A stretch of 64,000 nt of DNA from a virus. The position numbers and the translations under genes were made by a program. A model generated the notes under the pieces. That model saw only the letters and a program-made list of their open reading frames with translations. It was not told the DNA's origin and made no database searches. How positions within the stretch are numbered: position 1 is the stretch's first letter; each line of letters starts with the position of its first letter. The stretch is from the IMG/VR virus record IMGVR_UViG_3300022752_000027, positions 1 through 64,000 of that record; one strand, written 5' to 3'. This document shows, piece by piece, positions 8,679 to 56,398 of the stretch.

Positions 8679-8679
8679 C

Positions 8680-12180: not shown

Positions 12181-12192
12181 CTATAGAATAAA

Positions 12193-13113: not shown

Positions 13114-13149
13114 TTTTTAAATAAAGTAAAAATTTAGTAAATTAACAAT

Positions 13150-14685: not shown

Positions 14686-14703
14686 TAATAAATAATAAAG
14701 AAA

Positions 14704-17268: not shown

Positions 17269-17280
17269 TAGTAAAAGAAA

Positions 17281-17559
17281 ATGGCTTGCTTATCCTCAAT
17301 TCCGTTAACTACAATTAATGTAACTAGTACAACTATTACACTTAATTGGGGTGCTGTAGAAAATGCAACGGGATATCAGTTAGAATATAAAGTAAATGAT
17401 CCTGCAGTTTTAGTATATACAATACTTCCCCAACAAACTACTACATCTGTTGTAGCAAGTTCATTAATACCAGGAACAGAATATCAGTTCAGAGTAAATA
17501 CTTTATGCAGTGGCGGTGAATCTTGTTACTCTGCAACAATTCTAAAAAGTACGCTGTAA
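17281..17559 (+). CDS. Single fibronectin type III domain protein
   Basis: NVTSTTITLNW....ATGYQLEYK...SLIPGTEYQFRVNTLC. Confidence 0.8.
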   Translation: MACLSSIPLTTINVTSTTITLNWGAVENATGYQLEYKVNDPAVLVYTILPQQTTTSVVASSLIPGTEYQFRVNTLCSGGESCYSATILKSTL

Positions 17560-17562
17560 TAA

Positions 17563-21259: not shown

Positions 21260-21261
21260 TA

Positions 21262-28148: not shown

Positions 28149-28153
28149 ATTTC

Positions 28154-30370: not shown

Positions 30371-30379
30371 TTTTGTACT

Positions 30380-33211: not shown

Positions 33212-33268
33212 TTTAAACCTGAAAAGTTTATTAAACTTTATAAATTTTTTCGTATTTTAGTATAAGAA

Positions 33269-36200: not shown

Positions 36201-36595
36201 GTATTCCTGACTATAAGATAACATTCTTTATGGATGCTGATAAAGCAGAGTCATCACCATTCCAAGCAATGCAGCTTTCAAGTGAAGAAATGCTAATGAA
36301 TATGAATGGTCAAATTACACTTGATGCTCATGAAAAATATGCTGGAAATGCAAGTATTTCTAAAAGTGCATTAGGTGGCTATACATATAATGGTTACATA
36401 AAAGCCATGGATGAACTTGGTAATTATATAACTAATCCAATATTTGGAAATTCTGATGCTGACCTAAACTCTCTATATGGGTATCTTAATAATATAATGG
36501 GTTCAGCAGCAATGTCAAATATGCAACAAGAAGCAGCATTAAGAAACCAACAGAATCTTCAGTTTGATCCAACAGCAGTGCTTGAAACAGAATAA
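33269..36595 (+). CDS. Putative ejected protein with a membrane-inserting segment
   Basis: 1108 aa, helical, Cys-free; Gly-rich hydrophobic hairpin near the middle. Confidence 0.6.
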   Translation: MATYIPGIQDYIPQIQPFKPDFNFFQSALEQKQQQYQAGYNKISAVYGQLLNSELLRDANKERRDALFTEIDADIKRLSGVDLSLQENVKEASKLFQPLINNDYFRKDVAYTKQHYAQLRRADGMMRNPDPKSDERYWQEGVTALHYQAEDFSKSTDEESMRYRNPVYTPKIDVTEKLFKFGKDNDINPESDPIRSGGFMYKYTNGRPAIPTLQNTFSSVLMSDPRIKAMTDTEAYLERKNYSKENATRFNGDELAAETEYLQNKIADINKYYEKATKQTEEKANRVNTTKKVIEDRIATYGIDPDLDQDLVKMYQGAMTDQSTIASNQQKNKDVTSQINGIDMNSLDRESLRYRVDNAMSYFKIDGLAAQTAEQYAMSKQKVDFQVDPYALEATKHRYAMARQDDQQDHEKKMKIMDIASEMFKASGNAQAGKSLNPFYGTGLLLKIPTPGGVTADNLDIQRGNEAAAQTKLDQSTKIVDTNIEDFLAIQNSIIKNPGATPEQKAKAEQDIKDRLGEYQVVSKQEAYTKDLPTDVTDFGAGIGKILLGAGLWTEAIAGTIFTGGFSLPAQIGVASTGTIAIGKGISDIVGAVGGKEEVGEKITQSKGLVVKNANGTYDLVPQAQRTHFTDPSSESYYDNVNKKVLEGLNETYALYKGTPYEGIIREKINKTNDRQQQLKTYNDVLDGVKRITTENNQVLSTAMANEAGTTAENAKLYWKPDMTGSRTENEFVSAYVEANKNNTKDYPQTTFMSYVVGSTFADFTGDTKWTVSEEERLQDMRDDAIDLYEELIDAHETLAKNPDGNLKLKSVFDDGLVADEGINRFFSNASYYGFDAAFYDEAGFKMGMDFFQKDFIPKTASPSFRDENGVKIVYGSGLEITRDEYAEMKHDPKAEMALKTFLASASMNYGGKTGENQMRPTGAYYLSAIAANDANKVAMTWELDPAWVKEHAGTKDAHGPTWDLQQKFAEKEKEKGGIPDYKITFFMDADKAESSPFQAMQLSSEEMLMNMNGQITLDAHEKYAGNASISKSALGGYTYNGYIKAMDELGNYITNPIFGNSDADLNSLYGYLNNIMGSAAMSNMQQEAALRNQQNLQFDPTAVLETE

Positions 36596-36597: not shown

Positions 36598-39500
36598 ATG
36601 GTAGATAACTTTCAGATACCTACTGGTAATCAAGGGGTAGATCCTATTGATCAGTATCTTACTACTCTTGCAAAAACAACACAGTATTTAGATCAAGCTG
36701 TACCCAGATTAGAACAAGGCATAGATCAGATATTACCTCCTCAAGCAAAAAATAAGTCTCAGTATACTGGTTTTAACCAACAGAAAGCTGATGCAGCTTT
36801 GGGTACTTATAATGGTATGGCTTCGTTTACTCCTAATAATACAAAGCCAAAACAAGGAGGAAACGTTGATTATATACAAGGACTGATTGCATCAGCAATA
36901 TCATCACCCATTCCTACATCTGGTGCTGCAAGCCAAGTAAGAAAAACTGGTTTTGCAGCTGGTCCAGATAAATTAAACTTTGATAGGTATTATGCACATA
37001 ATGCATATAAGAAACTTGGATGGAATCCTTACGTAGATAACGAGGCTATTTATAATGCTAATAGTTCTTGGACAGATGATTTTGGAAGAGCATGGGACCA
37101 GTGGGGAAAGCTTGCATCATTAGGTTTTAAACAGACTGCCCAAAATTGGGATGATTTGTTTACTTTAAATACTGCTGGGGATACCAAAAATGCCAGAGAA
37201 ATGAATAGATTAATGTCTATTTCATCATCTACAAGAGGTGGTATTGGTGGTTTTGTTACGAATCAATTTGCAAATTCTGCCTACACATTTGGTGTAATGG
37301 GAGAAATACTTGCAGAAGAAGCTGCATTATGGGGAGCAACTGCATTAACTGAAGGTGCATTAGCATCACCTGCCGTAGCTAGAACTGCAGCCAATATAAA
37401 AAAATTATTTTCTGCGGGTAACGCCGCTGAAAATGCTGCAGATGCCATAAGAGCAAGTAAGACTGTTGAAGAAGCAAAATCTATGACTACTGCCGTAAAT
37501 TCTGTTCAGGATGTTTCTCAAGCTAGAAAGTTTTGGAATGGTGTGGCTGGATTTATAAATCCATTTTCCGATACTGCTGAGACAATAAAGAATATTAGAA
37601 CAGGTGCCAACGGCTACGATAAATTAACAGATGTAGCTAAAGCCACTAAAACATTTGGAGCATTCTTTAGGGATATGCGACTCATGAATACAGCACTAGC
37701 AGAATCAAGATTAGAAGGAGGCTTTGTACAAAATGAAGTCTTCAATAAACTTATTCAAGATTGGAATAAGAACAATGTTGTTCCGCCAGATGATATAGCA
37801 GCAAACAAAATGCTTAAGCAAGCAAAAGATGCTGGTATTAGAACAACAATGATGAATATGCCAGCAATTCTATATTCTAATAAGATTGTATTTGATAAGG
37901 CATTAAACGGATTCAAACCATTTAGAGAAACCTTAGATGGTAGTCTTGGTACAATGGTAAAGAAACTAGGTGGCAAGGGTAAGGCATACGAAGGATTTAT
38001 AGATACGGCTAATCCTAAAACATGGTTTACTAAAAGAAATTTTAAAAGAATTGGTAACCAGTTCAAGCCAGCAAACATAGCAAAAGGAGGAATGAGATAC
38101 TTATCTGCCAACCTAGCAGAAGGATTGCAGGAAGTATATCAAGAAGCTATAAGTGAAGCCACAACTAATTACTTTACACAGAAGTATCTTAATGCAGATA
38201 GAGCAGGTTACTTGTCATATGCTGCTGCATTAGGTGAAGGATTTGGAAATCAGATATCTGGTAAAGGTGCTGAAACATTCTTATCTGGTTTCTTGATGGG
38301 AGGTCTTGTACAAGGACCACAAGCATTAGCATTTCAGTATGCTCCGCAGGTAGTTAAAGACTTTCAGGAAAGAAGAAAAGATCCAGCAAAGTATGCTGAA
38401 AGACAAAATCTTAGAAAGCAACAACAAGAAAAGATAACTAACTTCCTTAATAAAGTAGCAGAAGACCCTAAAGCCGTGTTTGATCCTGTATATGCTAATC
38501 TACAGGCACAAAAGGACTTTGCAACAAAGATGGATCTAGCTGAAGCTGATGGTAATAAGAAAGAACATAAAGATGCTTCTCAGGATTCAATACTTGAACA
38601 TGTACAACTTCTTTTAAATAAGGGATATATTGATTTATTAAAAGATCAGATTTCAAGTTTTAAAGGACTAAGCGATGCTGAATTACTTCAGGCATTTGGA
38701 TATAGTCAAGAAAATGGAAATGCTAATGAGTATAATAAATCTATTAGGGAAAAACTAAATGGTGTAGAGGCAAAGATTGAAGAGATTACCAAAAGACATG
38801 AGAAGTATAGTAGTATAAAGAATCCATTTGATCCAGACTCTGATGAGTTTCTTGATTATGCAGGATTTGAAACTGCAAGACAAGCAGCTATCTATAACGA
38901 ATATACTTTTAGCCAAGCTGAAAAAAGAATGGCTGGTATTCTACAGGAGACTTCTAAATTTGCTGGAGGTGCTGTTGCTGGTACTATTACTAATCTTTTT
39001 AATCTAGATCAGTTAAATAATGAAATCAAACTTTTAAAACAAGAGGCTACAGTATTATCTCAGGGTGATGCAGAGCAAAAGAAACTTGCAAAGAAAAAAC
39101 AAAAGGCATTAGATGCATTAACTGCCCTTAGAGGAAGTATTGAACTGTATAGTCAAGACCTTGAAAAGCATAGAAAAAGTCTTGTAGATAAGGAAGCAAA
39201 AAAAGAATTATCAGAAGACGGCACACCAGAATATTTAGAATATTCAAGAAAAGAACTTGATAATGATTTAAGAAAATACATCTCTACAATTACTGGACTA
39301 CCTCTAGATGATGCATCTATGGATAAACTGGTTATTGATTTCCAGGATTATTATGAATTAGATCATGACAAACGTGTAGCTAGTGTTAACGTAAATAAAC
39401 TTAATGATCCTAACTTCTTCTTTAAGACAGCAAGAAGATTTAGTGAATCACAAAGAGAAACTCTTAAGGCAGCACAGAAATATATAAATGATGCCTATGC

Positions 39501-40470
39501 TGAATTCATGCGTAGGAAAGATAGCAATCAGTTACTAGGGGACTTGTACGATAAGTATAAGGTATTTGTACTACCTGAAGATATTGCTGATTTTGTTGCT
39601 GGTAAAAAACTACCTTCAGAGTTTGTTGATGTGGCTACCAAAGTTCCTCTTGAAAAAGACAGTCCTAAGTATGCCGAAATAATAATGTATCTCAAAGAGT
39701 TTGAAGAAGCTATGGGATACAAGTTTGAAGGTATGCCAGAGATTGTAGAAGTAGAGGAAGAAAAACCTGAAGAGGTTAAAGAGGAAGAAGTAAGTCTACA
39801 ACCTGAAACTCCAACAGTAACTAAACCAGTTACTACAGATATGGCTGTAGGAGATATTCCTAAAGACCTTATTGCCCAATTACGTGCACAATTTAGAATT
39901 GATAATAATAATATGATTAATGCAGGGCAGACTGCTATGATGGAATCTGAATTCTCCAAATGGGTTCAGACTAGTTCTAGTGCTGCTAACATTATTTATA
40001 ACTGGAACATGGCTAATAACCTTATAGATAAGAGTACACCTAGACCACAAGTTTCAGAAAAAGCAACTGGGGTTTCCACAGAATTAGTTAAATTTGAAGA
40101 GTTAACAGAAAACACTGTACTTATAATGAAAGATACTGGCAAGTTCCCATTAAAGCGCGCAAGAGTTATTGAAACTGATGCAGCTAATAGAACTATTACA
40201 GTTCAACCTGTCGGTACCGAAGATAGAGTAACTTTTATAGAAAGTGAAATACCTAATGAAATTGCTAGTATATATAAGACAGGAGTAGTTGCTCCTGAAG
40301 CCACCCCAGAAGTTACCTCTGGAGAACAGCAATTGTCAAATGAAAATTTAACTGCTGTTACTACTGAAGAGGAACTTATAAATAGCATTAACGAGGACGT
40401 GGAAAAAGCCAAGTCCATGACAAAAGAAGATAGAGATAACGACCTTTTAAACTCATTAGGCTGTAAATAA
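36598..40470 (+). CDS. Large ejected protein
   Basis: 1290 aa; EGLQEVYQE and FLSGFLMGG motifs; single penultimate Cys. Confidence 0.65.
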   Translation: MVDNFQIPTGNQGVDPIDQYLTTLAKTTQYLDQAVPRLEQGIDQILPPQAKNKSQYTGFNQQKADAALGTYNGMASFTPNNTKPKQGGNVDYIQGLIASAISSPIPTSGAASQVRKTGFAAGPDKLNFDRYYAHNAYKKLGWNPYVDNEAIYNANSSWTDDFGRAWDQWGKLASLGFKQTAQNWDDLFTLNTAGDTKNAREMNRLMSISSSTRGGIGGFVTNQFANSAYTFGVMGEILAEEAALWGATALTEGALASPAVARTAANIKKLFSAGNAAENAADAIRASKTVEEAKSMTTAVNSVQDVSQARKFWNGVAGFINPFSDTAETIKNIRTGANGYDKLTDVAKATKTFGAFFRDMRLMNTALAESRLEGGFVQNEVFNKLIQDWNKNNVVPPDDIAANKMLKQAKDAGIRTTMMNMPAILYSNKIVFDKALNGFKPFRETLDGSLGTMVKKLGGKGKAYEGFIDTANPKTWFTKRNFKRIGNQFKPANIAKGGMRYLSANLAEGLQEVYQEAISEATTNYFTQKYLNADRAGYLSYAAALGEGFGNQISGKGAETFLSGFLMGGLVQGPQALAFQYAPQVVKDFQERRKDPAKYAERQNLRKQQQEKITNFLNKVAEDPKAVFDPVYANLQAQKDFATKMDLAEADGNKKEHKDASQDSILEHVQLLLNKGYIDLLKDQISSFKGLSDAELLQAFGYSQENGNANEYNKSIREKLNGVEAKIEEITKRHEKYSSIKNPFDPDSDEFLDYAGFETARQAAIYNEYTFSQAEKRMAGILQETSKFAGGAVAGTITNLFNLDQLNNEIKLLKQEATVLSQGDAEQKKLAKKKQKALDALTALRGSIELYSQDLEKHRKSLVDKEAKKELSEDGTPEYLEYSRKELDNDLRKYISTITGLPLDDASMDKLVIDFQDYYELDHDKRVASVNVNKLNDPNFFFKTARRFSESQRETLKAAQKYINDAYAEFMRRKDSNQLLGDLYDKYKVFVLPEDIADFVAGKKLPSEFVDVATKVPLEKDSPKYAEIIMYLKEFEEAMGYKFEGMPEIVEVEEEKPEEVKEEEVSLQPETPTVTKPVTTDMAVGDIPKDLIAQLRAQFRIDNNNMINAGQTAMMESEFSKWVQTSSSAANIIYNWNMANNLIDKSTPRPQVSEKATGVSTELVKFEELTENTVLIMKDTGKFPLKRARVIETDAANRTITVQPVGTEDRVTFIESEIPNEIASIYKTGVVAPEATPEVTSGEQQLSNENLTAVTTEEELINSINEDVEKAKSMTKEDRDNDLLNSLGCK

Positions 40471-40471
40471 A

Positions 40472-43400
40472 ATGATAAATTGTAGTCTTACACCTGACCA
40501 AATCAGAACCTTACGAGTAAAGATTTCAGGTGACTTACTAGATATTCTAGGTAGTCCTGATGCCCAATTTGATGTAAAATCTTATTTGAGGGATCTTTAT
40601 AATTTTATTGAAGCTGGATCAAACGGAAACAAAAATCTTGCATTAGACTATGCAAGAATGGGATCTGTAATTATATCTCAGTTGGTTACAAATAGACCGA
40701 CTGATATTGCCAAGCTTTTATTTAAAGGTCTGGATCTCAATGAGTTAATGAAGAAAAACATTGAGTTTGCAGATCCCACTAATGGATTAAATCTGGTAAA
40801 CGAATATGTTGCACCAATTGTTTCTGAAGAGACTGTAGAAGAAATTGTTGCTGAAGAAGAGAAACAAATACAACAAAAAAAAGTAGAAGACAAGATTTCT
40901 AGTACTGGACCTACCATTGAAAGATTACGTCCAACAACTGCAGTATCTACTACTATAAATGAATTAGTAGATCCAGATGATGCAAGTCTTGGGGCTGATC
41001 CAGGAATGCGGTACTACACAAAATTTGTACGTGAAATACTTACAAACTATATTGGCAAACGTGTAGGAACTTCAGAATTTTCTGGAATAGATTATCCAGG
41101 TATTTATGGTGGATTATTTATCACCATGATGCGCTACAATCAAATACCTGTAGCACAACTCCATTCTAAAATGGACCTGAGTAGAGCTGAAGACAAGCAT
41201 AAGTATGATAATGATTTTGTCTATGTAATAACTGATGAGAATGGTTTTCCGGTAACTTTTGATGAAAACTATAAAGTATCAGGATCTGGTAAATTAATTT
41301 ATTATAATACCAGATTCCTTCCTGTAAAACAAGACGGAAAATTTATTTTAACAAATGTTAAGAACGTCCAGAATCCTAAGGAATTATCTAAAAACCTTGG
41401 CATAAGTGAATTAGATGCTGAGAAGATGTTAGATGCTCAATTTAGGGCACTAGAACAAGCTTATGAATATCTTAAAGCTAATCCAGAAGGTAAGCTTCTG
41501 TATTCAATACGTGGGGGGAGTTACGGTACAGTTGTAAATGAAAATGCTGCTTTTGTAGATCCAAAATCAATAGATTTTGAAAACGCGGCTAAAAAAGTAA
41601 TGCTTATTAATAAGCAACAAGCAGCTGAAGCAACAGGATCATCAAATTCTAAGGGTGGTTTTTATCTTACTGCTACTGGTAAAGGCATGATGTTTATGAA
41701 AATTAAGAAGTTATCTGATACAGATATTAATCTTATTTTCAACGTACTTACTAAGAATCTTACTAACCAAGCTGGTCAACCTGTATCACTCGAGACAAGA
41801 AAGAATATCATTCAGACATATATAAAAACGTCTCCAAATGATTTATCTATATCAATAGATTCTACGAACAATAAACTAGTCCTTAAATACAAGGGTGAGA
41901 TTATTGACTTAGATAACGTAGATGCTGTAAAGAATGCCATTGCTAGAGATAAGACAGGTAACCTCCGTGAATATACGTTTGCAACAAACAAGTTCAATGA
42001 CGAACAAGCAATACCCCTCTATAGTGTAGAGATAGATGAAAGGACTGGTGGAGCATATATTTCTGGTATTAAGCCCATGTCTCCGATTGAATACATGAGT
42101 CATGTATCAGAAGTAAAAGTAGAACTTGAACCTGATGGAACTATAAAGCAGTATAATGCATATTTTAGTTTAACCTCTACGCCAGAGACTATTGGAAAAA
42201 CTGTAGTTAAAACAGAAGCCCCTACTGCTGACCCTACAATTAGAGAAAAGAAAAATGAAATAGTTGATCAGTTATTTAGAGGTGAGGAAGTAACAGGAGA
42301 TATTCAGAGACCACAGAACAGTGTTACTCGTTTTGAATTCATAAAGCCTGATGGTACTGTAGTCAATTTCTACAACAGGAATGCTGAGCCTATAAATGAA
42401 TCAGACCTCAATAAGAAAGCTAGATTAAAACTAGTAGAGAAGGTAACTACCGAAGATGGTAGAGAATTCTATAATGTTGTAGAAGTATACATTGGAGATA
42501 AGTATGTAGGCAACATTCAGGAGACAGACTTTAGACAACCTAAAAAAACTGAAGAGGCTATTGCAAAGGCTGAACCTATTGTAAAAGAACAAGAGAGTAA
42601 ATCATCAAGTGATGCAGATACTATAAGTAAGATCCTTAAGAATAATGATCTGCTTAAAAGATTACGTAACAAGCTTGATGACCAGACCAATGTCAAGGCT
42701 ACTGCAGAGCAGATAAAACTGGCCAAAGAATGGTATGAGAACAGTCCTCTTTCTAAGTTTATTCCATTTACTGTAGCATTTAATATAATCAATACTAAGA
42801 CCAGAGGATCTATTGCTACATGGGACGTACATGGTATTACTCTATTCAAAGGATCTAACTATTCTGATCTATACCATGAAGCATGGCATGGCTTTACTCA
42901 GATGTTCTTGACTAAAGAGCAAAGGGATTCATTGTATGCAGAGGCTAGAAAAAATAAAGGAACCTTTAAGAGTTTCAGAGGACGAGAAGTATCATATGCT
43001 AATGCTACCAGAGAAGAACTAGAAGAGAAACTGGCAGAAGACTTTAGAGAATTTATGTTGTCTAAAGGCAAGAAGGTAAATGAGAAGGCACCGGTAAAAA
43101 ATAAGATATTCAAACTTTTATTAGACTTATTAAACTACCTGTTTGGTAAGACTAGTGTACAGGATGTACAGGATAATAGCATGGGTAACCCTGTTATTAG
43201 TGAGATGTTTGAGAAACTAAGAGTAGGAGATATAAACGAGTATACGTTTAATCAGGCTAATGCTGAATTCTCTTTACTTAATAGTACTATACAACCATTA
43301 GATCCTACCATGGATGGTCCTGGAACCATCTCTAGACAGGATGCAAAATTACTGGTAGATACTACAGATGCATTAATTGGGGAACTAATTGATAAACTAA

Positions 43401-46400
43401 ACGAAGCAGAGAATACTAAGACATTTACTAGAGCACTGCTACTAGATAAGGAAGGAAGAACCCTTGCATATAAGTATGTAGAGGAACAGCTTACTAATAA
43501 GCTAGAAGAACTCCTACTAGAGCATAATGCTATGGATGCTGATGCTGATAAGCAAGAGATTGACTATAAGATTAGTTTGCTTGCATATGCATTGCGCAAC
43601 TTTGGTGATAGTAACAATCCCTTCAACACATTCGGTCTTGTAAAATACCATGGTCAGACTTCAGAATTCTTGGAATTTGAGGATAGACTTGGTGATATGC
43701 CTGAGGATGTCAATGTATACGAACGTAATGAATTTGACCGTAAGGCTGGTAACGAAACTGCTATGAAGGCATTAGCAGGTACTTCCCTACTCTATACTAT
43801 AAGATCATTGTATTCACATGATGCTAATGGTAATGTAGAAAAGAACATGCTTGGTTTCCCGAAACTTGCTGACTTTAATAGAAGCTGGAATAGGATTACT
43901 AATATTACTGAAGGGTCTAACAACGTAGACGATATTTTTAAGAAGCTTCAGGATGCATCTGCTGATTACCCCATTATAAAACAGTTTATTGATAAGGTAG
44001 GTAGTCCTGCTAATCTGGAGAACTCATCTGTTAGACTTTGGTCAGACATAGAAAAGATTATGACCATGCCTCGCATTGGTCTTGTAAGCCTCAGAGTAAA
44101 GGTAGAGAATAGTAAACCCGAAGGTTCTGAGAAGATTAAAAAGACTGTTATTGTAACAGCTACTCAGGCTACTGGAGAATATACTAAGGTTGGTAGAAAA
44201 TGGGATAGTCAATTTGCTATTGCAACAGGTCCTTACATTACCGTAGATGAGAATAACGTCAACACTCTTAATATTGATAAGGTACTAGCAGATTTTCCAG
44301 CTGTTACATTTGATAATGCTTTCAGGTTTATGGAAGCCGTAGGTATGCCATTAGAATCATCTAAGGTTGCTGAGAAAGCATTTAGAGAATCTAACATGCT
44401 TGTTGATGTTCGTAATATTCATACAACTCTAAAGGGAATTCAGGAATATCATAATCAGTATTCTCCTACTAAACGTTTGACAATTACCAAACCATCTGAA
44501 ATTCTTAAAGACTTTAAGGTAAAGATAAGTTTGGATCCAGGTGTTTCTGATTCTGAAAAAAGAAGAGCAATAAGTACGCAGATAAAACTTGGAGGAAGTA
44601 CAACTACTTTTAATAATCTTCAGAAGTTTCAACTAAAATGGTCTGACGACTTTTCGGATACTACTGTATCTAATGCAGAGAACCAGAACCAGTATGAAAG
44701 ATCATTAAGAAGTACAGCTTCTCAAATGATCTCTAAGATAAATGCTGCTAATACCGAAACTGAACTTACGCAGGATGGTGTTACTAATGCAGATGATTTA
44801 AGTATGAATCATTTGTCCCGTAGACGTAATCCGTTTGTAAAAACATCAGCTTTCTTCAGAAGACTGTTTGATAAAAACGGAGAAAAGAAAACTGGCATTG
44901 TAAATAATAAAATGACTACGGCTAAAATAGACCTGATGAATATGTCAGGGGTAAGCCGAGAGTTAATCAATGTAAAAGGTATTGTTGAGAATTCTGGTAT
45001 ATCATCATCTAGCGCAGATGGAGTTACTAAGAGACTAGAAGACATGCTTATGATGATGTTGTATGGTGTCAATGAAGCAACACGTCACGCTGATAAGTCT
45101 ACTACATATTTATATAAGGTTCTAGATGAGCAAGGCAATGTACACTTAATTGATATTGCTTCTTTCTCTGATGCTGTTGGAGAAAACAGTTCTACGGGGG
45201 TACAGAAATACGTAAACCAGCTTGTACAATATTTGGCAAGTGAATACGAACGTATTCAAAAATTAGAAGATGGTGATGAAGCTGGAACTGTTACGGTAGG
45301 TAAATCTAATTATTATAAGACAGGTACTCAGTTTGCAATCTTTGATAGAATTTTATCTGATACTACTAAAAACAAACTGAAAACTTTCCGTAGTGCCAAA
45401 GCAAATAGCATTAGAACTGCTGAAACTTTTTATCGATACTTGAATGATCCAATCAACAGAGATCTTAAAGATACTGTTGAGAAAGAAATCAAAGAGTATC
45501 TATTTAGTAGAAGTGGGGTCATTACTGAAAAATTAAATGAAGTAAACTTCTTTCAGAATGATCAGCTTGTAGATGAGCTTGTTAAAAGAATGCTCCGCAC
45601 TAAGAAAAAGGGATATGAGAAATCTGAAACCTTTACAACGTTATCCAGAGATAGAAAGAAGGAGATTGTAGATTCAATAGCTATTGCCTATACCGCAAAT
45701 GACTGGTTGCATAAATATGAATCTACTCTTTTGTTCTATGGTGATCCTGCATTATATGACCATAGCAAAGATGAATTCTTTAAAAGAAATGCTGGTTTCT
45801 CTGCTACAGGAGACATTCCTCGTACAGATAAATATATGATTGAGTATATAAATCAAAAACTTCAGGAGAATTCTTTAGCCGGTAAATTAGGTATGAAGCC
45901 TAAATCATTTGGCAAAGTAATGTCTGCTGCAGTAATGCAGGATACAGCTACAAAATCAATTTATCTAGAGGATTATCTTAAGTATGCTAAAGAAAAAGAA
46001 GAGGCAAGACTAAGAGGCCTTAACTTATCCGATGAGAAAATAAATGAAGCATTAGCAAAAATTGAGGAAATCTTCAATGATGCATATGCAGCTATGAAAG
46101 AAGGTGATGGTCAAGGTTGGATCAACTTTGATGCATACAGATCTTTATTGTTATCTCTTAATAAATGGTCTTATTATCAGGAACAGCTCTATAATAAAGT
46201 AGTAAATAATGAACCAGTAGATGTAAGTGAATTACTTCAGTTCTTCCCTGTTAAGAAGATGCAATACTGGGGACCACTTAAGACAGACGGTCTTCCTGTA
46301 TATGGATTCCATAAGTATTCTTTGATGCCGTTAATTCCTAATGTTACCGTAGGTACTCATATGGAAACACTACAGCAAAGAATGTTGGAGCAAGGTGTAG

Positions 46401-49400: not shown

Positions 49401-50488
49401 AAATATCTAACCTTAGAATTGGCGGAAGACCAAGAGGAAAAGATATAGAAAGACTTTATGATAACCTTCAGGAACTTTCAGATCCAACAGTAAGAAAAGT
49501 AAAAGATTCTTTTGAGAATGCTGTACTAAGCAATCTGTTTCAGAAGATGACACACTTTGCATTACTTCAGTCTGGTATTGATACAGGAAGTACATTTAGT
49601 CTGATTCCATTTGTATCAAATGAAAGTTATCTTAATCTAGTTAAGGAACCATATGAACAGTTCTTAGCTGATTCTGATACTAGACCACTAGATTTATATG
49701 ATAACTTGTTTGAAGCACAGTATTCCGAGGAAAGTAACAAAGCTCTGAAGGTAAAAGTAAAAGCTTTTGCTAAATCCATTTATGGTATAACACCGTATGA
49801 AAGATATACAAGGGAGTATATATCTACTCCTAATGAAGAAAGTGTAGAAATTACAGCCCTTGATAAAGTTAGAATAGCAAAAGATAACTTAACTAATACT
49901 TTAGTATTTGCTCCAATCAGTACCACGATGCTTACTGAAGCTATAATGAAAGAATTTGCTGAAGCAATTAAAGCATCAGGAAAAAAACAACTTGTAGTAT
50001 TTAATGAGATAGATGGAAGAACTAAAAATGTACAGGGTAATAATTCTGTATATAGAGCAATGGGTGATATGTCCTATGGTATTGTAACTAAAAAAGGACC
50101 TATGCCTACTAAACCTGATGGTAAACAGGATAAACTAGCAATGTTTACTGACCAGACCCTAGATAACAATAAGACTATGATTGACGAAATGATTAAAGGC
50201 CTTGCTGCAAAACAAGCCGAAGGTTATGAGTTAATCTTTGATCTTAATGGCTATGGTCAATACATGGCAGGATACAATGAATATGCACCAACCGGAAAAG
50301 ACAAACCTGATTTTGATGCATCAGCTCCAGAAACTTTTAACTATCTTTCGCAGCAGTTATTTGAGAACTTTGGATACTTAAATCCTAATTACTTAAAGAC
50401 ACTTGAGGGTAGAAGAATTGTACAGTCTAGACAGCCTGTAACAGATGACGAAATATTTGACCTTAAAAAATCTTGTAAATTAGCGTAA
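40472..50488 (+). CDS. Giant virion-packaged DNA-dependent RNA polymerase (crAss-type) with a zincin-like domain
   Basis: RIPTQG...GGDFDIDK (catalytic motif at 47456-47473, as in phi14:2 gp66); also DGQGW and VDVAKD; HEAWH at 42875-42889. Confidence 0.9.
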   Translation: MINCSLTPDQIRTLRVKISGDLLDILGSPDAQFDVKSYLRDLYNFIEAGSNGNKNLALDYARMGSVIISQLVTNRPTDIAKLLFKGLDLNELMKKNIEFADPTNGLNLVNEYVAPIVSEETVEEIVAEEEKQIQQKKVEDKISSTGPTIERLRPTTAVSTTINELVDPDDASLGADPGMRYYTKFVREILTNYIGKRVGTSEFSGIDYPGIYGGLFITMMRYNQIPVAQLHSKMDLSRAEDKHKYDNDFVYVITDENGFPVTFDENYKVSGSGKLIYYNTRFLPVKQDGKFILTNVKNVQNPKELSKNLGISELDAEKMLDAQFRALEQAYEYLKANPEGKLLYSIRGGSYGTVVNENAAFVDPKSIDFENAAKKVMLINKQQAAEATGSSNSKGGFYLTATGKGMMFMKIKKLSDTDINLIFNVLTKNLTNQAGQPVSLETRKNIIQTYIKTSPNDLSISIDSTNNKLVLKYKGEIIDLDNVDAVKNAIARDKTGNLREYTFATNKFNDEQAIPLYSVEIDERTGGAYISGIKPMSPIEYMSHVSEVKVELEPDGTIKQYNAYFSLTSTPETIGKTVVKTEAPTADPTIREKKNEIVDQLFRGEEVTGDIQRPQNSVTRFEFIKPDGTVVNFYNRNAEPINESDLNKKARLKLVEKVTTEDGREFYNVVEVYIGDKYVGNIQETDFRQPKKTEEAIAKAEPIVKEQESKSSSDADTISKILKNNDLLKRLRNKLDDQTNVKATAEQIKLAKEWYENSPLSKFIPFTVAFNIINTKTRGSIATWDVHGITLFKGSNYSDLYHEAWHGFTQMFLTKEQRDSLYAEARKNKGTFKSFRGREVSYANATREELEEKLAEDFREFMLSKGKKVNEKAPVKNKIFKLLLDLLNYLFGKTSVQDVQDNSMGNPVISEMFEKLRVGDINEYTFNQANAEFSLLNSTIQPLDPTMDGPGTISRQDAKLLVDTTDALIGELIDKLNEAENTKTFTRALLLDKEGRTLAYKYVEEQLTNKLEELLLEHNAMDADADKQEIDYKISLLAYALRNFGDSNNPFNTFGLVKYHGQTSEFLEFEDRLGDMPEDVNVYERNEFDRKAGNETAMKALAGTSLLYTIRSLYSHDANGNVEKNMLGFPKLADFNRSWNRITNITEGSNNVDDIFKKLQDASADYPIIKQFIDKVGSPANLENSSVRLWSDIEKIMTMPRIGLVSLRVKVENSKPEGSEKIKKTVIVTATQATGEYTKVGRKWDSQFAIATGPYITVDENNVNTLNIDKVLADFPAVTFDNAFRFMEAVGMPLESSKVAEKAFRESNMLVDVRNIHTTLKGIQEYHNQYSPTKRLTITKPSEILKDFKVKISLDPGVSDSEKRRAISTQIKLGGSTTTFNNLQKFQLKWSDDFSDTTVSNAENQNQYERSLRSTASQMISKINAANTETELTQDGVTNADDLSMNHLSRRRNPFVKTSAFFRRLFDKNGEKKTGIVNNKMTTAKIDLMNMSGVSRELINVKGIVENSGISSSSADGVTKRLEDMLMMMLYGVNEATRHADKSTTYLYKVLDEQGNVHLIDIASFSDAVGENSSTGVQKYVNQLVQYLASEYERIQKLEDGDEAGTVTVGKSNYYKTGTQFAIFDRILSDTTKNKLKTFRSAKANSIRTAETFYRYLNDPINRDLKDTVEKEIKEYLFSRSGVITEKLNEVNFFQNDQLVDELVKRMLRTKKKGYEKSETFTTLSRDRKKEIVDSIAIAYTANDWLHKYESTLLFYGDPALYDHSKDEFFKRNAGFSATGDIPRTDKYMIEYINQKLQENSLAGKLGMKPKSFGKVMSAAVMQDTATKSIYLEDYLKYAKEKEEARLRGLNLSDEKINEALAKIEEIFNDAYAAMKEGDGQGWINFDAYRSLLLSLNKWSYYQEQLYNKVVNNEPVDVSELLQFFPVKKMQYWGPLKTDGLPVYGFHKYSLMPLIPNVTVGTHMETLQQRMLEQGVDYAMFQSGSKINTITNEEGKVDKFYNDNTNKTDQGVAFANPAYTFTKNNIFLDYFKDQLEVNDAYKGSVTFPTQLRTLIEEGLMENGVPTDWKPKLKDKSERIKKWKEETDKEDSNNYRLLNLYEAKLRRLVKLKKEKLKKEIGNKPEDLVKFIRKELTRREMAEHSIDFVDFDAQKNKFKNSLDLSLMADTIERALVAVVQKNLINQKVNGESLVQVAGTGFEKANFRKPSKEEIKEYGQRGLRFYHLKDGKTKAMQIKVAMQGKFKELLKLQDVRDLAREQEISELDALNMRLKDQEWVNNNRDLITSVAVRIPTQGLNSMEFMEIAEFLPESAGNIIILPAEIVGKTGGDFDIDKMFTLFPNIKIDENGLAQVESGDTIAGIENDILFITKEILEKEDNFLSLITPNTTITLKAIAEQIAEKLKGKKQKRSATDIFESEVNLEKHQSNNIGKMILGIIAVNNTFSTIFNRTGLVLLPERVVTSTESGNVYGRQTLELPHNTIDGNISLSSLYSADGIDKIADLISQMINGSVDVAKDDWIFDLQADKEAISKIVFMIQAGVPAKQVALFMSQPIIREYIRKQKMLRSKFNEPLGIKDPGTYYRITARDQILFGKEFGFGLKKKDYEKEGTVKKWMLWPTIERLAETADKNLFSEKSLEDNIKSKEYTDVDRAVFAHYLEIEEMANGVTNLTQKLNFDTSKTSTLFEARTKLSDLNDLANGISQESIGMIINNSPKGAFKIQDFIIDVFKDMFPLRDGDKLNDHISESLLARDKKFRQKLSTLKKRIGMTDDEDVINKYRSDLISFIFQQHYYKFDQNAKTYNGVDLTYDIQEVKSLNNGAFVKDGVLYVDRAKIKEIFNSERYKSGQAWAYAIAPLDPSVLSLYDKDVAEALYSKYTYQREINRSIATNSFENVSKTKEFFEYKKELKDDPNADFKAYEMVLRDRTLDGLNYHGHMFFGKRAYAKQIMALKDTNPELFEKYQFLSDLEIVNTKYGVTEISNLRIGGRPRGKDIERLYDNLQELSDPTVRKVKDSFENAVLSNLFQKMTHFALLQSGIDTGSTFSLIPFVSNESYLNLVKEPYEQFLADSDTRPLDLYDNLFEAQYSEESNKALKVKVKAFAKSIYGITPYERYTREYISTPNEESVEITALDKVRIAKDNLTNTLVFAPISTTMLTEAIMKEFAEAIKASGKKQLVVFNEIDGRTKNVQGNNSVYRAMGDMSYGIVTKKGPMPTKPDGKQDKLAMFTDQTLDNNKTMIDEMIKGLAAKQAEGYELIFDLNGYGQYMAGYNEYAPTGKDKPDFDASAPETFNYLSQQLFENFGYLNPNYLKTLEGRRIVQSRQPVTDDEIFDLKKSCKLA

Positions 50489-53400
50489 TGAACTCTTGTC
50501 CGATACCATCAGAATTTGAACCATTAGTAGAACATGCTAAGTCCGTAGGTATACCTGAAAGGTCTGCTGTAAGTCAGGCATTAAGAGCATATATGATTCA
50601 TAACTCCAATCTAAAGCCAGGAGAAGAACCTAGTATGCCAACTAATTATGAGTTCAATAAGATAATGGATGATTATAATATCTTCATTAACTCTCCTGAT
50701 AGGCAAACGGTTACAGAAGCTCCAGTAGGTTCTAAGGATTACTTTGCTGATATAGAAAATGCATTTCCTTGGTATAAGGTTATAAGAGAAGGTCTGCAAG
50801 TTGACACTGAATCTCAGTCAAATCTTAAAGGTCGTGCTATTATAAATGCTATTGCAGAAAAACTAAGTAGCAATTTAGGTGTACCCTATCAGTTTGTTAC
50901 TGCTGCTGAGGCACAAGAACTTACTAAAGATGTAAATATTTGGTCTGGACAACCTGCATTTTATTTCGGAGATACTATTTATATCCTACCAGAATTAGCA
51001 ACAGAGAAATCTGTCTTCCATGAATTTGCTCATCCATTAGTAAGAGCTATTGCAACAGCTAATCCTGAGTTATTCAAGAATCTGTACAAGCAAGTAATGG
51101 CCACATCGAAGGGTCAAGAATTACTTGACCGTTCAAAGAAAGCTTATCCTTCTGCTGCACCAAATGATCCAATCATAATGGAGGAAGTATTGGTTATGGC
51201 TTTAACTCAGGCAGCAACAGACACAACTGATTCTGCATTTAACAAGTTCATTTCCAATCTGTTATATGCAATCAAGCAACTTCTACGCAGAGTATTTGGA
51301 AAAGTAAAAGTTGAAAAACTTAATCCTAATACTACTATTGGGGAGCTGGCAGATATGCTGATGATGGAGAAGTTTGATATAGATACAAAATCTATTAGCC
51401 GTGAAGACATTGCTGCTTACATGACTGAGTATGATAACCTTATTGAGTCTATTGATAAGTTATCTCAGAGTACATTACAGGGGTCAACTGATGAATTATT
51501 CAATATGATCTCTGGTCATATTCAGCTTATAAAAAACAACAAGGACTATAAGGCAATGGATCAGATCCTAAAGGATTTGTACCAGAGATCTGACCTGAAA
51601 GAAATTTATGAGAGTTTAGCACCATACCAAAGTAAAAACGAGTATTTAATAAACGAGATGACTCGGCTCCAGCAGGATGCAGAGTTTGCTAAACAACATA
51701 CAAAAGCATTCCTTGATAGTCTGTTGCGCCTCAATGCAATGACAGATAGAGTACATACTGAACTTATCAATCTTGTGAAGGATATGAATTCCCAAGATAA
51801 TGTAGGTAAAGTATTTTACTTTAACAACATTATGAACTCATGGGATGAGTTCTTAAATGGTATGGAGACTACCATTAATAATGAACTACAGTCTGGAGCA
51901 ATTAAGCCGGACAATCCTATTATATCATTAGTTGGAGGTATCAGAAGAAAGATATCTAATGCACAGAAGACAGCAAACAAAGTATATGCTGAAGGTGTAT
52001 CACAGGTTCTTAAGTCTCAAATAGCACCAATGAAGACTGCTATTGATGAGAAGTATGACCAGATTATGGAGGATCTCCGTAAAAGAAATGCTCCTGCAAG
52101 TATTATAGCACAGAAACAAAAAGACTATTGGGGTCTTGAGGGACCAGAACTTGCTGAATTCCTAGACCTTAAGAATAAAAAAGATAAGGGATTACCAATG
52201 TCTTCTGTTGAATCTCATAACTACGAGATTCTAAAAATGAAGAGTTATAGAGATGGTGCATATCTTACTGATGAGAAGATTGATTACCTAATGACTGGCA
52301 GACTTGGTGATGGTCATGCTCTTAATTCTTTTATAGAAGGTTTTGTATATAACCAAGATCCAATTGTATTTGGATTTGCCGGATGGGTAAAGGATAATCT
52401 TACTGAAGTATTTACCTCATCACAAAGAAAAGGTAATTCTTTTCTTAATGAGGTTAAGCCATTACTAGAGGCTGCTGGTTATAACCAATCTAACCCTGCT
52501 GCATTCGGAAGAAGAGCAACCTTTAGAGATAAGAAAGGTGGTGTAGATAAAGATGGTAAGTACGTCACTAAAGATGTAAATACTATTATCAATCCTTGGA
52601 AAGACTATAGGGCTGATATTGCTAGATTAGAAGCAGAGATTAGAGCAGCAACTGAAGTAGCATATTCATCAGGAAATAATGATGAGGTTCTACGACTTAA
52701 GAAAGAAAAACGAGACTACGAACAGAAGTATTTTCATACCCCATATACAGAAGAATACTATAAAAGATTTAGTGTATTTAATCAAGGTCCTGGAGATATT
52801 ATTGGCGCAAAAGCTGAGGCTGCTAGAAATGAATTATTATCAAAAATTCAGAATCTTACTACATCAATTGGTATCTCTACAACAAATGAGAACTTTGATA
52901 CTAGAGATGAACTAGCTAATCTTTGGAGAGAATACAGACAGCTGCATTCTAACTATACATCTTCGGGTCAATTAAAAGATGCTGAAGGAATTAAGATTGC
53001 AGAAAGACTGAGAGAATTTAGAAATGCATCTAAGGATCTATACGATAATACTCTTATCCCTGAGTTGTTTACTAGTTCTCTTGCTGCATATGAACAGTCC
53101 CTTATTGACCAAGGCTATGAGAAATGGGGTGTACCATTCATGAAGCTGAGAAATAAATGGATTGAAAAGAACACCAGAACTGTAATCAAAGATAACTTCT
53201 ACGCAGAGCAAAAAAGAATTACAGATGAGATTAAGCAGATAAGTAGCAAGCTACCTAAAAATCTACAGGCTGAGTTTGATATAAGCAAACACTATGAGAA
53301 GCTTCTGCAGTTGATGAATCCTTACAGAGATGAGGATAATCAACCAGAAGCTACAGCAATGGACTTGCGTAACATCGAAGCCATTAAAGAAACTCAGGAA

Positions 53401-56220
53401 TTAATTAATCTTGCAAAAGAAAATCTACCTAGACTTACTGGTCTGACACAACTGGAGCATGCTACTCTTAGTAATTACTACGAAAAATTATCTGAGGGAG
53501 AACCTGTTACTAAAGAAGAAAGAGAAGAAGTAAAAGTACTATTAGATAAGAAGTCACAGTTTGGATTATCTAAAGAAGATAAGGCTAGACTGTATGAATT
53601 GTATGCGGAATTAGGAGAATTACAGAAGTCATATCCCACAGACTATTACATGGATATGTTTAACAACTATCTGAGTTTAGTTGACATGGATCTTTTAGAG
53701 TCAAACTTTGACATGAAGGATCTCACTATGGATACTGCAGACAGAGTTTTGAATATGGACTTCTATAATACTATAGTTAGCACTAATCCAGAATTCAAAG
53801 AATGGTTTGATAAAAATCACATTATCAAAACTGTTACTGATAAGTTTGGAGTAAAGACTAGAAAGATAGAACGTGTAAAGGCATGGAGTGTAGTAAGACC
53901 AAGGAACATACAATACTATGACATATTCAGCTTTACTAATTCTTTAGGTCAGCCTGAGTCTATTGTAGGTATGCCTAACCACCTTTATTATGAAAGAACG
54001 GTAAAGCAAAAGTTTGTTACAAAGCCTGTATCTGTACTTGAAGCAATTGAACAGGGAGATATTACTAAGGCCAACATGGATAATAAAGGTAACTGGTTAC
54101 CTAGATTAGACATTGACGATAAGAAGTATGTAAATGAAAAGTTCTTTAATATCCGTGACACGGATAAGAACTTATACAATGCTATTATTGCTTTAACTAA
54201 ATGGCACTTTACTTTCCAAGAGAATAGTCCTAATAGTTCTAAGTTAGGTTTTGATATACCCCGATATAGAAAAGAAGGTTACGAATCTAGAATGGAATAC
54301 TTTACCGCCGAGGGTAAATTAGAAAATCCTATATCTAGATGGTGGAGAAGATTTAAATCATTGTGGCAACCCTCACCTGATGATGCCGAAGAAGGATACA
54401 ACTTTAAGGATCAGATGATGATGATGGATGGTGAAGTATACAATGATCAGAATGCTGGAATTCCAATCACTGGTCTATCTGCATTAGAAGCAGATGACGT
54501 ATCACTAGATCTTACTTATGGTATGTTAAAGTTTATGGTATCATCCGAAAAGCAAAGAAAGCTTATCGAGATGAATCCAATGGCTAGAGCATTGCAGATG
54601 GTAATGAGAGGTTCTGAAGATGCTATTAATGAATTTAAAAACATTAATAAAAGAACACAGAAAAATAACAGCACCTGGAATCTTGTTGGAGAAAAAACAA
54701 CACTAGGTAAAAGCAAAGGAAAGTCAGTAAGGGAAACAGCAATAGATAACTTTATAGAAAGAGAATTTGAAGGAGTAGTACGCAAGGGTGTACTAGGTAA
54801 AGATAAAGACAATGCATTTGTTAACAAAGTAGTAGATAATATCATGAGATTATCTGCCTTTGGATACTTTGCTATGGACATACCTAGTGGTCTGAAAAAC
54901 TCTTTTTCTGCTAGAATACAAAGTATTCAAGAAGCAGCTGGAGGTAAGTATTACAACATGACTAACTATGCTAAAGGAGTAGCTTGGTCAAATAAAACCA
55001 TGTGGGAAATAAGTCTTAACGTAAATAAGTTTGGACCTAAGTCACATGATCAGCAGCTCGTTGAAATATTTGATGCTGTGCAAGGAAGATTTGAAGAAAA
55101 GTTTGCAGATCATGGTTCAAGATCATTAACTAAAGATGCACTTGGTGGATTGACCTGGATGACTAGCTTCCGTAAATGGACAGAATTAAATTCATCGCTG
55201 TCTATATTCGGCGCAATGCTGCATCACGAAAAAAATGTAGAGCAAACAATTAATGGAGTTACTAAAAGAATTGCATATATAGATGCATGGGAGACAGTAG
55301 ACAATCAAATAAGATTAAAAGAAGGTGTAGACCCTGAATGGGGGATTAATGGTGCTAAGTTTAAAGCATTTAAGAATAAGGTACAAGGTGTTAATAACAG
55401 CCTGAACGGTTCTTTTGCTAAGTTTGATTATGCAGAGGCTGATAAGTTTATGGCTTTCAGATTTGTAATAGCCTTTAAACGCTGGTTCATTAGAATGTTC
55501 TTAAACAGATATCAGTACAGAGGTAGTATGCGTAATCCTAAATACAGATACGACGCTGCTGTAGGTGATACTGTTATGGGATTCCATGTTGAAGCAATGA
55601 GAGCATTATTTAGAGGAATACAAAGTAGAGGAGAATACTTTAATTTCTTATCCCCATCTGAGAAAGCAGCATTGTGGAAGACAACTATGGATGTAGCATA
55701 CCTTATTTTATTCAGCATGGCTATATCAATGATCTTTGGATTTGATGAAGATGATGAAGATAAGTTTGAAAAACTTAGAGATAGATCAGGACCTCTTCCA
55801 TTCTTTGGGGTAAGTGAAAATGAAGCTGACTTTAAATTAGGGGGATGGCTAACAAACCATGCACTACTTATGACAATGCAACTTAAGAATGAAACGGTTC
55901 AATGGTTACCTTTGCCTGGACTAGGTGCAGATAACTATCTAGAGATGCTTAAGATGGATGCAATAGCAATGAAAAATACTTTAGATAACTATAAGAAGAT
56001 GGGTGGTGCATTAATTCTTGTTTCTGGTAATGCATTATTTGGAACAGATAGTACTAAAGCATATTGGGATCAAAGAGAAGGACCATACTCATGGATGCAA
56101 GAAGGAGAAGAAGGAAGTAAAGCATTGAGTTATTTCTTTAGATCATTCGGTGTTACAGGTAAATCATTAGATCCTGCACAAGCAACAACTAACTGGGTTA
56201 AATCATCAAATTGGAGATAA
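50488..56220 (+). CDS. Large ejected protein with an N-terminal zincin-like domain and a C-terminal hydrophobic helix
   Basis: HEFAH at 51019-51033 with downstream EE; VAYLILFSMAISMIFGF near the C-terminus. Confidence 0.7.
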   Translation: MNSCPIPSEFEPLVEHAKSVGIPERSAVSQALRAYMIHNSNLKPGEEPSMPTNYEFNKIMDDYNIFINSPDRQTVTEAPVGSKDYFADIENAFPWYKVIREGLQVDTESQSNLKGRAIINAIAEKLSSNLGVPYQFVTAAEAQELTKDVNIWSGQPAFYFGDTIYILPELATEKSVFHEFAHPLVRAIATANPELFKNLYKQVMATSKGQELLDRSKKAYPSAAPNDPIIMEEVLVMALTQAATDTTDSAFNKFISNLLYAIKQLLRRVFGKVKVEKLNPNTTIGELADMLMMEKFDIDTKSISREDIAAYMTEYDNLIESIDKLSQSTLQGSTDELFNMISGHIQLIKNNKDYKAMDQILKDLYQRSDLKEIYESLAPYQSKNEYLINEMTRLQQDAEFAKQHTKAFLDSLLRLNAMTDRVHTELINLVKDMNSQDNVGKVFYFNNIMNSWDEFLNGMETTINNELQSGAIKPDNPIISLVGGIRRKISNAQKTANKVYAEGVSQVLKSQIAPMKTAIDEKYDQIMEDLRKRNAPASIIAQKQKDYWGLEGPELAEFLDLKNKKDKGLPMSSVESHNYEILKMKSYRDGAYLTDEKIDYLMTGRLGDGHALNSFIEGFVYNQDPIVFGFAGWVKDNLTEVFTSSQRKGNSFLNEVKPLLEAAGYNQSNPAAFGRRATFRDKKGGVDKDGKYVTKDVNTIINPWKDYRADIARLEAEIRAATEVAYSSGNNDEVLRLKKEKRDYEQKYFHTPYTEEYYKRFSVFNQGPGDIIGAKAEAARNELLSKIQNLTTSIGISTTNENFDTRDELANLWREYRQLHSNYTSSGQLKDAEGIKIAERLREFRNASKDLYDNTLIPELFTSSLAAYEQSLIDQGYEKWGVPFMKLRNKWIEKNTRTVIKDNFYAEQKRITDEIKQISSKLPKNLQAEFDISKHYEKLLQLMNPYRDEDNQPEATAMDLRNIEAIKETQELINLAKENLPRLTGLTQLEHATLSNYYEKLSEGEPVTKEEREEVKVLLDKKSQFGLSKEDKARLYELYAELGELQKSYPTDYYMDMFNNYLSLVDMDLLESNFDMKDLTMDTADRVLNMDFYNTIVSTNPEFKEWFDKNHIIKTVTDKFGVKTRKIERVKAWSVVRPRNIQYYDIFSFTNSLGQPESIVGMPNHLYYERTVKQKFVTKPVSVLEAIEQGDITKANMDNKGNWLPRLDIDDKKYVNEKFFNIRDTDKNLYNAIIALTKWHFTFQENSPNSSKLGFDIPRYRKEGYESRMEYFTAEGKLENPISRWWRRFKSLWQPSPDDAEEGYNFKDQMMMMDGEVYNDQNAGIPITGLSALEADDVSLDLTYGMLKFMVSSEKQRKLIEMNPMARALQMVMRGSEDAINEFKNINKRTQKNNSTWNLVGEKTTLGKSKGKSVRETAIDNFIEREFEGVVRKGVLGKDKDNAFVNKVVDNIMRLSAFGYFAMDIPSGLKNSFSARIQSIQEAAGGKYYNMTNYAKGVAWSNKTMWEISLNVNKFGPKSHDQQLVEIFDAVQGRFEEKFADHGSRSLTKDALGGLTWMTSFRKWTELNSSLSIFGAMLHHEKNVEQTINGVTKRIAYIDAWETVDNQIRLKEGVDPEWGINGAKFKAFKNKVQGVNNSLNGSFAKFDYAEADKFMAFRFVIAFKRWFIRMFLNRYQYRGSMRNPKYRYDAAVGDTVMGFHVEAMRALFRGIQSRGEYFNFLSPSEKAALWKTTMDVAYLILFSMAISMIFGFDEDDEDKFEKLRDRSGPLPFFGVSENEADFKLGGWLTNHALLMTMQLKNETVQWLPLPGLGADNYLEMLKMDAIAMKNTLDNYKKMGGALILVSGNALFGTDSTKAYWDQREGPYSWMQEGEEGSKALSYFFRSFGVTGKSLDPAQATTNWVKSSNWR

Positions 56221-56368: not shown

Positions 56369-56398
56369 AGAAAAACCCCGGATTTCTCCGGGGCTTCC
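56369..56398 (-). terminator. Terminator between the convergent modules
   Basis: On the - strand: CCCCGGA-GAAA-TCCGGGG-TTTTTCT; may act in both directions. Confidence 0.8.

Follow-up and report, generated by a model that had tools for sequence, protein, structure and literature searches.

Here we describe a stretch of viral DNA of 64,000 nucleotides (nt; hereafter the window, positions 1–64,000 of IMG/VR record IMGVR_UViG_3300022752_000027, a virus record of 123,735 bases that is rated as complete) in which three giant neighbouring proteins, here called A, B and C, carry cysteine (Cys) only at the termini that face one another. We confirm this pattern and find it strongly conserved and closely bound to the boundaries between genes. 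We consider it fairly probable that A, B and C, the middle one of which we assign as a crAss-type virion RNA polymerase, are links of one head-to-tail chain whose facing Cys form inter-protein disulfides.

The seven consecutive proteins encoded on the plus strand at 26460–56220, where the plus-strand gene run stops, total 9,889 amino acids (aa) in translation and hold four Cys. The first four open reading frames (ORFs), at 26460–28148 (562 aa), 28154–30370 (738 aa), 30380–33211 (943 aa) and 33269–36595 (1108 aa), make up a quartet at 26460–36595 with 0 Cys in 3,351 aa, which lies between a Cys-bearing virion protein of 1732 aa and A. The first link, A (plus strand, 36598–40470, 1290 aa), has its sole Cys at residue 1289 (TGT, 40462–40464), in a C terminus that reads LGCK before the stop codon. 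B, the middle link (plus strand, 40472–50488, 3338 aa), has Cys only at residue 4 (TGT, 40481–40483, in the N terminus MINC) and at residue 3335, four residues from the C terminus (TGT, 50474–50476, in KSCKLA before the stop codon), and C, the last link (plus strand, 50488–56220, 1910 aa), has its sole Cys at residue 4 (TGT, 50497–50499, in MNSC) and a C terminus without Cys. A recount agrees in coordinates and residues with the original prediction, which had placed all four Cys of the 9,889 aa at the facing ends of A, B and C. Because A has no N-terminal and C no C-terminal Cys, the proposed chain would have a start and a finish. The other 27 window ORFs of at least 100 aa, counted with four antisense ORFs nested within the cargo genes left out, contain 219 Cys in 10,438 residues (2.10%), a background at which the seven proteins would be expected to hold about 207 Cys against the 4 observed; the probability that four Cys placed at random would fall one in each of the facing 4-residue ends is about 6e-13.

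B matches PDB 6VR4 chain A (phi14:2 gp66) over three stretches with E = 1e-22 and carries the catalytic DFDxD motif as DFDID at residues 2329–2333 (nt 47456–47470), with D2329, D2331 and D2333 invariant in 44 homologues; by these matches it is a virion RNA polymerase of the crAss type (phi14:2 gp66-like, two-barrel). Judged by its homology and the position of its gene, it would be carried inside the virion and transcribe early genes. A tblastn search with B matched 62 phage records, nearly all of them crass-like and, among named phages, only distant relatives; tblastn with C against named phages gave no match. Neither PHROGs nor Pfam yielded a useful match to B or to the six proteins in the cargo position, the single hit to DUF7831 being below threshold, while the 1732-aa ORF upstream of the Cys-free run matches phrog_37948, a virion structural protein, and a PHROG head-protein match lies at window 360–1982. 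We infer a cargo role for A, C and the Cys-free quartet from position, composition and the crAss001 atlas, the available part of which reports the corresponding proteins in virions (PMC10172136).

B also contains an HExxH motif (HEAWH, residues 802–806, window 42875–42889) that is invariant in 44 B homologues and at which Pfam called no domain; the phi14:2 gp66 preprint (10.1101/2020.03.07.982082) assigns a zincin-like protease domain to gp65 orthologues instead. The length of 3338 aa and this motif are points in which window B differs from the phi14:2 module. Many B homologues are longer, at 3,700–4,980 aa (P0011–P0030, P0054, P0064, P0079, P0111, P0113), with extra domains that are almost Cys-free and Pfam matches that include RecD/PIF1-type helicase, AlkB-like 2-oxoglutarate oxygenase and DUF1768/NADAR families; the polymerase protein would therefore bring further enzymes into the host.

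Across the families of A, B and C the terminal Cys are conserved, as the original prediction would have it. Exactly one Cys, in the last 4 residues, is found in 58 of all 62 A homologues, the remaining four being short forms of 768–1149 aa; the 103,034 residues of the family include no Cys at an internal or N-terminal position, and C1289 is invariant in a 34-sequence alignment. Among the best 120 of 420 B homologues, which reach down to about 30% identity, Cys occurs within the first 10 residues in 113 and within the last 10 in 116, with 28 internal Cys in 437,911 residues, spread over 23 proteins; Cys 3335 is invariant in a 44-sequence alignment. In the C family, 104 of 108 homologues have an N-terminal Cys at residue 2–9 and none has Cys in its last 10 residues, with 26 internal Cys in 16 proteins. 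The residues sit very close to the ends, 0–3 residues from the end of A, 0–8 from the C terminus of B and at residue 2–9, mostly 3 or 4, at the N termini. Before the Cys of A lies an acidic stretch rich in aspartate and glutamate (consensus E-D-x-D-N-D-F-L-N-S-L-G-C), and after the N-terminal Cys of B the family consensus is a basic amphipathic segment; the consensus of the B C terminus and C N terminus is different, with Cys-Pro at the C N terminus in 57%. The two joints would therefore not be interchangeable, which would give the chain its order.

The protein just upstream of A, comprising homologues of the ORF at 33269–36595, has a Cys pair of its own at residues 128 and 134 in several relatives (L021, at 1418–4477, L032, L044, L054, L067, L069, L070 and L094); the window copy is Cys-free.

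Viral contigs were scanned with the 44-sequence B alignment, which yielded 79 loci with flanks of 10 kilobases, of which 74 non-redundant loci were kept and 5, with B ends identical to those of another locus, were dropped. Plus-strand ORFs of at least 300 aa were considered, B being the ORF with the DFD motif or, in three loci without the exact motif, the longest ORF, and junctions with gaps of up to 1500 nt were scored for Cys among the final 10 residues of the upstream protein and the initial 10 of the downstream one. From A|B downstream, 129 junctions have Cys on both sides, 0 have it on one side and 4 have none on either, three of these four lying upstream of a fused A+B protein and one after C. 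Upstream of A, 52 junctions have no Cys on either side, none is paired and a single orphan, at position -9 (negative positions count back from the C terminus), belongs to a 5'-truncated ORF in L032. The terminal Cys are thus paired across gene boundaries, the property that the original prediction had put forward, and the rule extends to relatives with other gene arrangements. PhiCrAssBcn2 (crAss001-like) and DAC15 encode A on the strand opposite B and C, and the protein still ends with a sole Cys, at -3; in these phages the terminal Cys of B are at 5 and at -9 or -1, and that of C is at 5 or 4. In the cultured phage phi14:2, the 5,398 aa of gp67, gp66 and gp65 hold only four Cys, at -1 of gp67, at 3 and -2 of gp66 and at 3 of gp65.

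These junctions bear on two further accounts of the pattern. The terminal Cys might act separately, in homodimers or in attachment to Cys-rich tail or portal proteins, so that their facing positions would be incidental; the window does have a Cys-rich tail module (3–7% in several proteins), and CrAssphage LMMB encodes an 861-aa protein with a lone C-terminal Cys and no partner on the next gene. We regard this account as highly improbable, given 0 orphans in the 133 junctions from A|B downstream, the loss of both Cys together wherever genes are fused, and a predicted A|B fold that would place both Cys in one interface. There is next to no chance that signals in the DNA at coupled gene boundaries, such as stop-start overlaps, produce the pattern as a side effect. 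The sequence TGTAAAT is common to both window junctions, where genes abut or overlap by one base, but the opposite-strand A gene of PhiCrAssBcn2 and DAC15, distant from the B start, keeps its C-terminal Cys, the Cys position shifts by several codons between relatives that share about 30% identity, and the junctions upstream of A are equally tight yet Cys-free.

Natural rearrangements of the genes sharpen the connection between Cys and boundary. Five loci (L031, L056, L061, L073 and L099) have an extra protein of 396–782 aa between B and C, with Cys at both ends. That of L031 (17632–19383) aligns by BLASTP over its full length to residues 1–563 of the L047 C protein, in which Cys occurs only at residue 4 and 706 residues from the C terminus; that of L056 (20037–22004) aligns to residues 3401–3851 of the L037 B protein, which has Cys only at 3 and -2; and that of L061 (17920–19110) aligns to residues 1–349 of the L058 C protein, whose sole Cys is residue 3. 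BLASTP also matches the L073 protein (19188–21536) to the interior of B or C proteins from other loci and finds no relative of the L099 protein (8510–10030). A module of about 400–780 aa is accordingly seen in three states, alone with Cys at both ends, joined to the C terminus of B or joined to the N terminus of C. Because the L031, L056 and L061 modules align to Cys-free internal sites, the same site is Cys-free when internal and Cys-flanked when it forms a boundary.

Fusions show the converse. The A+B fusion gp33 of Flavobacterium phage Fpv1 (4401 aa) has one Cys, at -2, and the next protein, gp34, has Cys 3. The Suoliviridae A+B fusions cr1_1 (4551 aa) and cr118_1 (4946 aa) have no N-terminal Cys, Cys at -4, and 1 and 4 internal Cys, respectively; the C proteins downstream of them carry Cys 5 and Cys 3. 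In L072 and L092, each A+B fusion has a single Cys at its C terminus and none at its N terminus. All five A+B fusions retain the pair at their downstream boundary. The B+C fusion of CrAssphage LMMB keeps the A|B pair alone (-2 and 3) and has no C-terminal Cys, and that of crAss002 is the same once the start of gp33 is shifted 32 codons to an internal Met-Ser-Cys. A single 3' open frame in L090 spans B and part of C, and its 3,974 aa include no Cys. Both expectations of the original prediction are borne out by these loci: stand-alone modules are paired at each new boundary in five loci, and the pair is lost at the fused site in Fpv1 gp33, cr1_1, cr118_1, L072 and L092, in LMMB and crAss002, and in L090.

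Two gene calls stand beside these cases. In crAss002 (L102, MN917146; 17151–29888), the Met-Ser-Cys 32 codons inside annotated gp33 matches the N terminus of the LMMB orthologue, and the terminal-Cys rule suggests that this internal Met is the real start. In L005 (4457–16811), the B gene is broken into two parts (3699 and 361 aa) that lack a Cys pair where they meet; the gene is intact (4117 aa) in the near-identical contig L011, and a recent disruption or an error in the sequence probably accounts for the break.

The fusion data are better fitted by a head-to-tail A–B–C arrangement than by one four-Cys cluster or a loop from the N to the C terminus of B. A single four-Cys metal site was set aside, the fused forms keeping just two terminal Cys, and so, on the same fusion data, was a closed loop between the two ends of B. 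We also judge it quite improbable that the facing Cys share a metal ion (zinc, iron or copper) with other ligands in place of a disulfide. A histidine does precede the C-terminal Cys of B in 12% of homologues, but there is one Cys per end and no other conserved ligand near any of the four ends, the two Cys retained in the fused forms speak against a four-Cys site, and the solved case of cyanophage A4, discussed below, is a disulfide.

The joint between A and B was also folded in silico, with window B residues 1–650 and A residues 1131–1290 and without alignments. The fold score is 0.62 (runs of 0.60, 0.65 and 0.62) versus 0.00 for the best of 3 controls; this mark is reached by 51 of 78 solved complexes and by 2 of 108 mismatched pairs. 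The runs share at least 22% of contacts, and the predicted local distance difference test (pLDDT) value of the partner is at least 51. All confident contacts lie between A 1260–1289 and B 4–79 (B 4–24, 45–50, 56, 60 and 70–79), so that both Cys, A 1289 and B 4, fall within the predicted interface, for which the model gives no Cys–Cys distance. In the fold model, supported by the family consensus on both sides, the acidic C-terminal helix of A (residues 1260–1289, plus strand, 40375–40464), which ends in Cys 1289, is the predicted docking segment, and the N-terminal segment of B (residues 4–79 including Cys 4, plus strand, 40481–40708) its predicted receptor. The model thus supports a putative binding of the A C terminus to the B N terminus.

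We propose that the acidic C-terminal helix of each link would dock onto the N-terminal segment of the next and that the facing single Cys would join as a disulfide once the particle has left the reducing cytoplasm, a bond that would take the place of the peptide bond joining the same modules in fused relatives. The linked unit would be 6,538 aa long and almost unbranched at its joints. The link would hold the three cargo proteins together inside the capsid; each protein would then pull the next, N terminus first, through the tail channel, and reduction in the host cytoplasm would part them. An end-to-end link is the reading that we prefer, and by analogy with A4 a disulfide is its most likely chemistry; the time of its formation, the ordered ejection and the reductive release are likewise proposals, the last two being reasonable conjectures. 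We picture a thread through a narrow channel that is cut by reduction because of the C-to-N polarity, the short overhangs and the equivalence to fused polyproteins. In the available part of the crAss001 atlas, the virion tail holds many disulfides (PMC10172136), and crassvirus particles therefore do become oxidised; the same source favours a model in which partly unfolded cargo is extruded from N to C terminus, and describes the order in which proteins leave as not understood. What stands of the original prediction of a single thread is the head-to-tail pairing in gene order A–B–C, carried by the fusion data and the 129 pairs; its choice of disulfide or metal, its fixed order of ejection and its reductive release stay proposals.

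Alternatively, the ends might pair as an assembly lock by which A, B and C enter the capsid jointly and in fixed proportion and leave it separately or unordered, which we consider rather unlikely. The fused polyproteins have been called 'likely cleaved', which fits a linkage needed only before or during packing, the A4 disulfide belongs to a static pre-ejectosome ring (PMC12002296, available part), and the predicted A|B fold is a folded docking interface with no extended thread. Against such a lock, no disulfide could act while particles assemble in the reducing cytoplasm of the host, and the strict C-end-to-N-end polarity and very short overhangs suit a thread in a narrow channel and would be unneeded in a capsid lock.

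Several observations weigh against a disulfide-linked chain that is ejected as one thread. The loci share ancestry, so that the 129 pairs correspond to far fewer independent events, although the lack of even one orphan is striking. As called, 7 of the 120 B homologues lack an N-terminal Cys and 4 lack a C-terminal one; aligned with window B, the seven begin between residues 42 and 1463 and the four stop between residues 2080 and 3095, by which we judge them to be shortened forms, the product of calling errors, of contig breaks or perhaps of real splits without a pair. Searches for related loci with three of these homologues (P0009, P0030 and P0061) in viral contigs, and with P0009 in metagenome contigs, gave other relatives or no match. 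Four of the 108 C homologues have no N-terminal Cys and have no explanation, and gut crassviruses tolerate a few Cys away from the ends (the LMMB fusion has 7, B of DAC15 has 3). The modelling of the C- and N-terminal pair, which favours docking by 0.62 over controls at 0.00, is limited by the low confidence of chain B (pLDDT 38–39), by an alignment-free fold and by its restriction to the A|B joint. Family matches to thioredoxin, glutaredoxin and DsbA were not found in the 123,735-base genome, and a search of it for Erv1-type thiol oxidases was uninformative, the control genomes being silent too; the bond would therefore have to form by spontaneous or host-dependent oxidation. Cleavage of the fused forms is suggested by Drobysheva et al. 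(preprint 10.1101/2020.03.07.982082), and if this is so the covalent link may matter for packing and not for ejection.

The closest known parallel to the proposed chain comes from cyanopodophage A4, whose pre-ejectosome was solved by cryo-electron microscopy (PNAS 2025); the available part of that report describes gp27 Cys1715 as disulfide-bonded to gp26 Cys5, with the C-terminal helix of gp27 inserted in gp26 (PMC12002296). In the record of A4 (Anabaena phage A-4L), gp27 (1717 aa) and gp26 (1114 aa) have one Cys each, Cys1715 and Cys5, and gp29 has none, so that gp27 and gp26, like the window proteins, are consecutive ejection proteins with sole Cys near their facing ends. Unlike the window, A4 has one joint instead of two or more, has no RNA polymerase and belongs to the family Saffermanviridae. 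BLASTP of the A4 proteins against window A, B and C leaves homology undetectable (best E = 0.008), and the gp27–gp26 pair is probably a convergent analogue of the window chain.

Among homologous modules, gp67–gp66–gp65 of phi14:2, in which gp66 is the virion RNA polymerase of PDB 6VR4, follow the same Cys rule as the window, as do the proteins of PhiCrAssBcn2 and DAC15, and cargo proteins of phi14:2 and crAss001 type have been found in virions (PMC10172136, available part; preprint 10.1101/2020.03.07.982082). Fused RNA polymerase polyproteins (Fpv1 gp33, cr1_1, cr118_1, LMMB and crAss002), a class of fusion that Drobysheva et al. record (preprint 10.1101/2020.03.07.982082), join the same modules by peptide bonds where the window joints are Cys-flanked boundaries. 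In the window itself, Cys is absent from the whole protein, as in Schitoviridae, in the four quartet proteins and not in A, B and C, with their terminal Cys. The virion polymerases of Schitoviridae are of the T7-like single-subunit kind, in contrast to the DFDxD two-barrel kind. Giant virion polymerases of that family (N4 gp50, DEV gp71) and their companions resemble the window proteins in suppressed Cys, with the difference that Cys is wholly absent and there are no terminal pairs; in the available part of PMC11445570, Cys suppression in the ejection proteins is ascribed to passage through the periplasm and the N4 virion polymerase is without Cys, which upholds what the original prediction had said of N4.

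We find the arrangement described in print for Crassvirales nowhere, supplements aside. The text of the gp66 preprint (10.1101/2020.03.07.982082) does not contain the words cysteine, Cys or disulfide; the word cysteine is absent from the available part of the crAss001 atlas, which reports disulfides in the tail only (PMC10172136); and a 2026 N4 paper makes no mention of cysteine. The novelty assumed in the original prediction is narrowed by A4, for which a single disulfide between the C and N termini of ejection proteins has been solved; what is available of that article gives the structural detail of one phage and no rule tied to splits or fusions (PMC12002296).

Other Cys arrangements were seen in compared phages and elsewhere in the window. 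In phage T7 (L104, 1229–8052), gp14 has one Cys, at residue 2, and gp15 and gp16 have none. CrAssphage LMMB (L017, 5625–9124) encodes a 264-aa protein with three [KR]-C-G-G-[KRH] motifs and the 861-aa protein mentioned above, whose lone Cys is at -2 and is followed by a protein without Cys; a 557-aa protein of crAss002 (L102, 6456–8129) has its sole Cys in R-C-G-G-K near its C terminus. These LMMB and crAss002 proteins may represent a second, different Cys device in Intestiviridae. The upstream tail or fibre module of the window (7918–18981) is Cys-rich, with 1.4–6.9% in six proteins of 186–1166 aa, the opposite of the cargo run. Between C and the convergent minus-strand genes, a 12-pair GC-rich hairpin with a T run (56371–56398) is a likely terminator that would close the structural operon. 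A search of the window for tRNA genes gave none.

How megadalton protein loads, including a 3,000-aa polymerase, pass through the narrow tail of a podophage is an open question, and a sequence rule that names the tied ends offers a concrete hypothesis testable in cultured phi14:2, crAss001 and DAC15. In a wider form that we put forward tentatively, as a possibility short of a probable claim, all RNA-polymerase cargo boundaries of Crassvirales would be disulfide-bridged in a 'redox-cleavable polyprotein' of about 600–750 kDa that enters N terminus first and is cut by the cytoplasm, the same device having arisen independently in cyanophage A4. For annotation, the terminal-Cys rule flags true starts, as in crAss002 gp33, sorts shortened gene calls from whole ones and marks neighbouring giant proteins that share one delivery unit in uncultured genomes. 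If the chain is real, terminal Cys pairs would be a general signature for the order and linkage of ejected proteins in uncultured phages.

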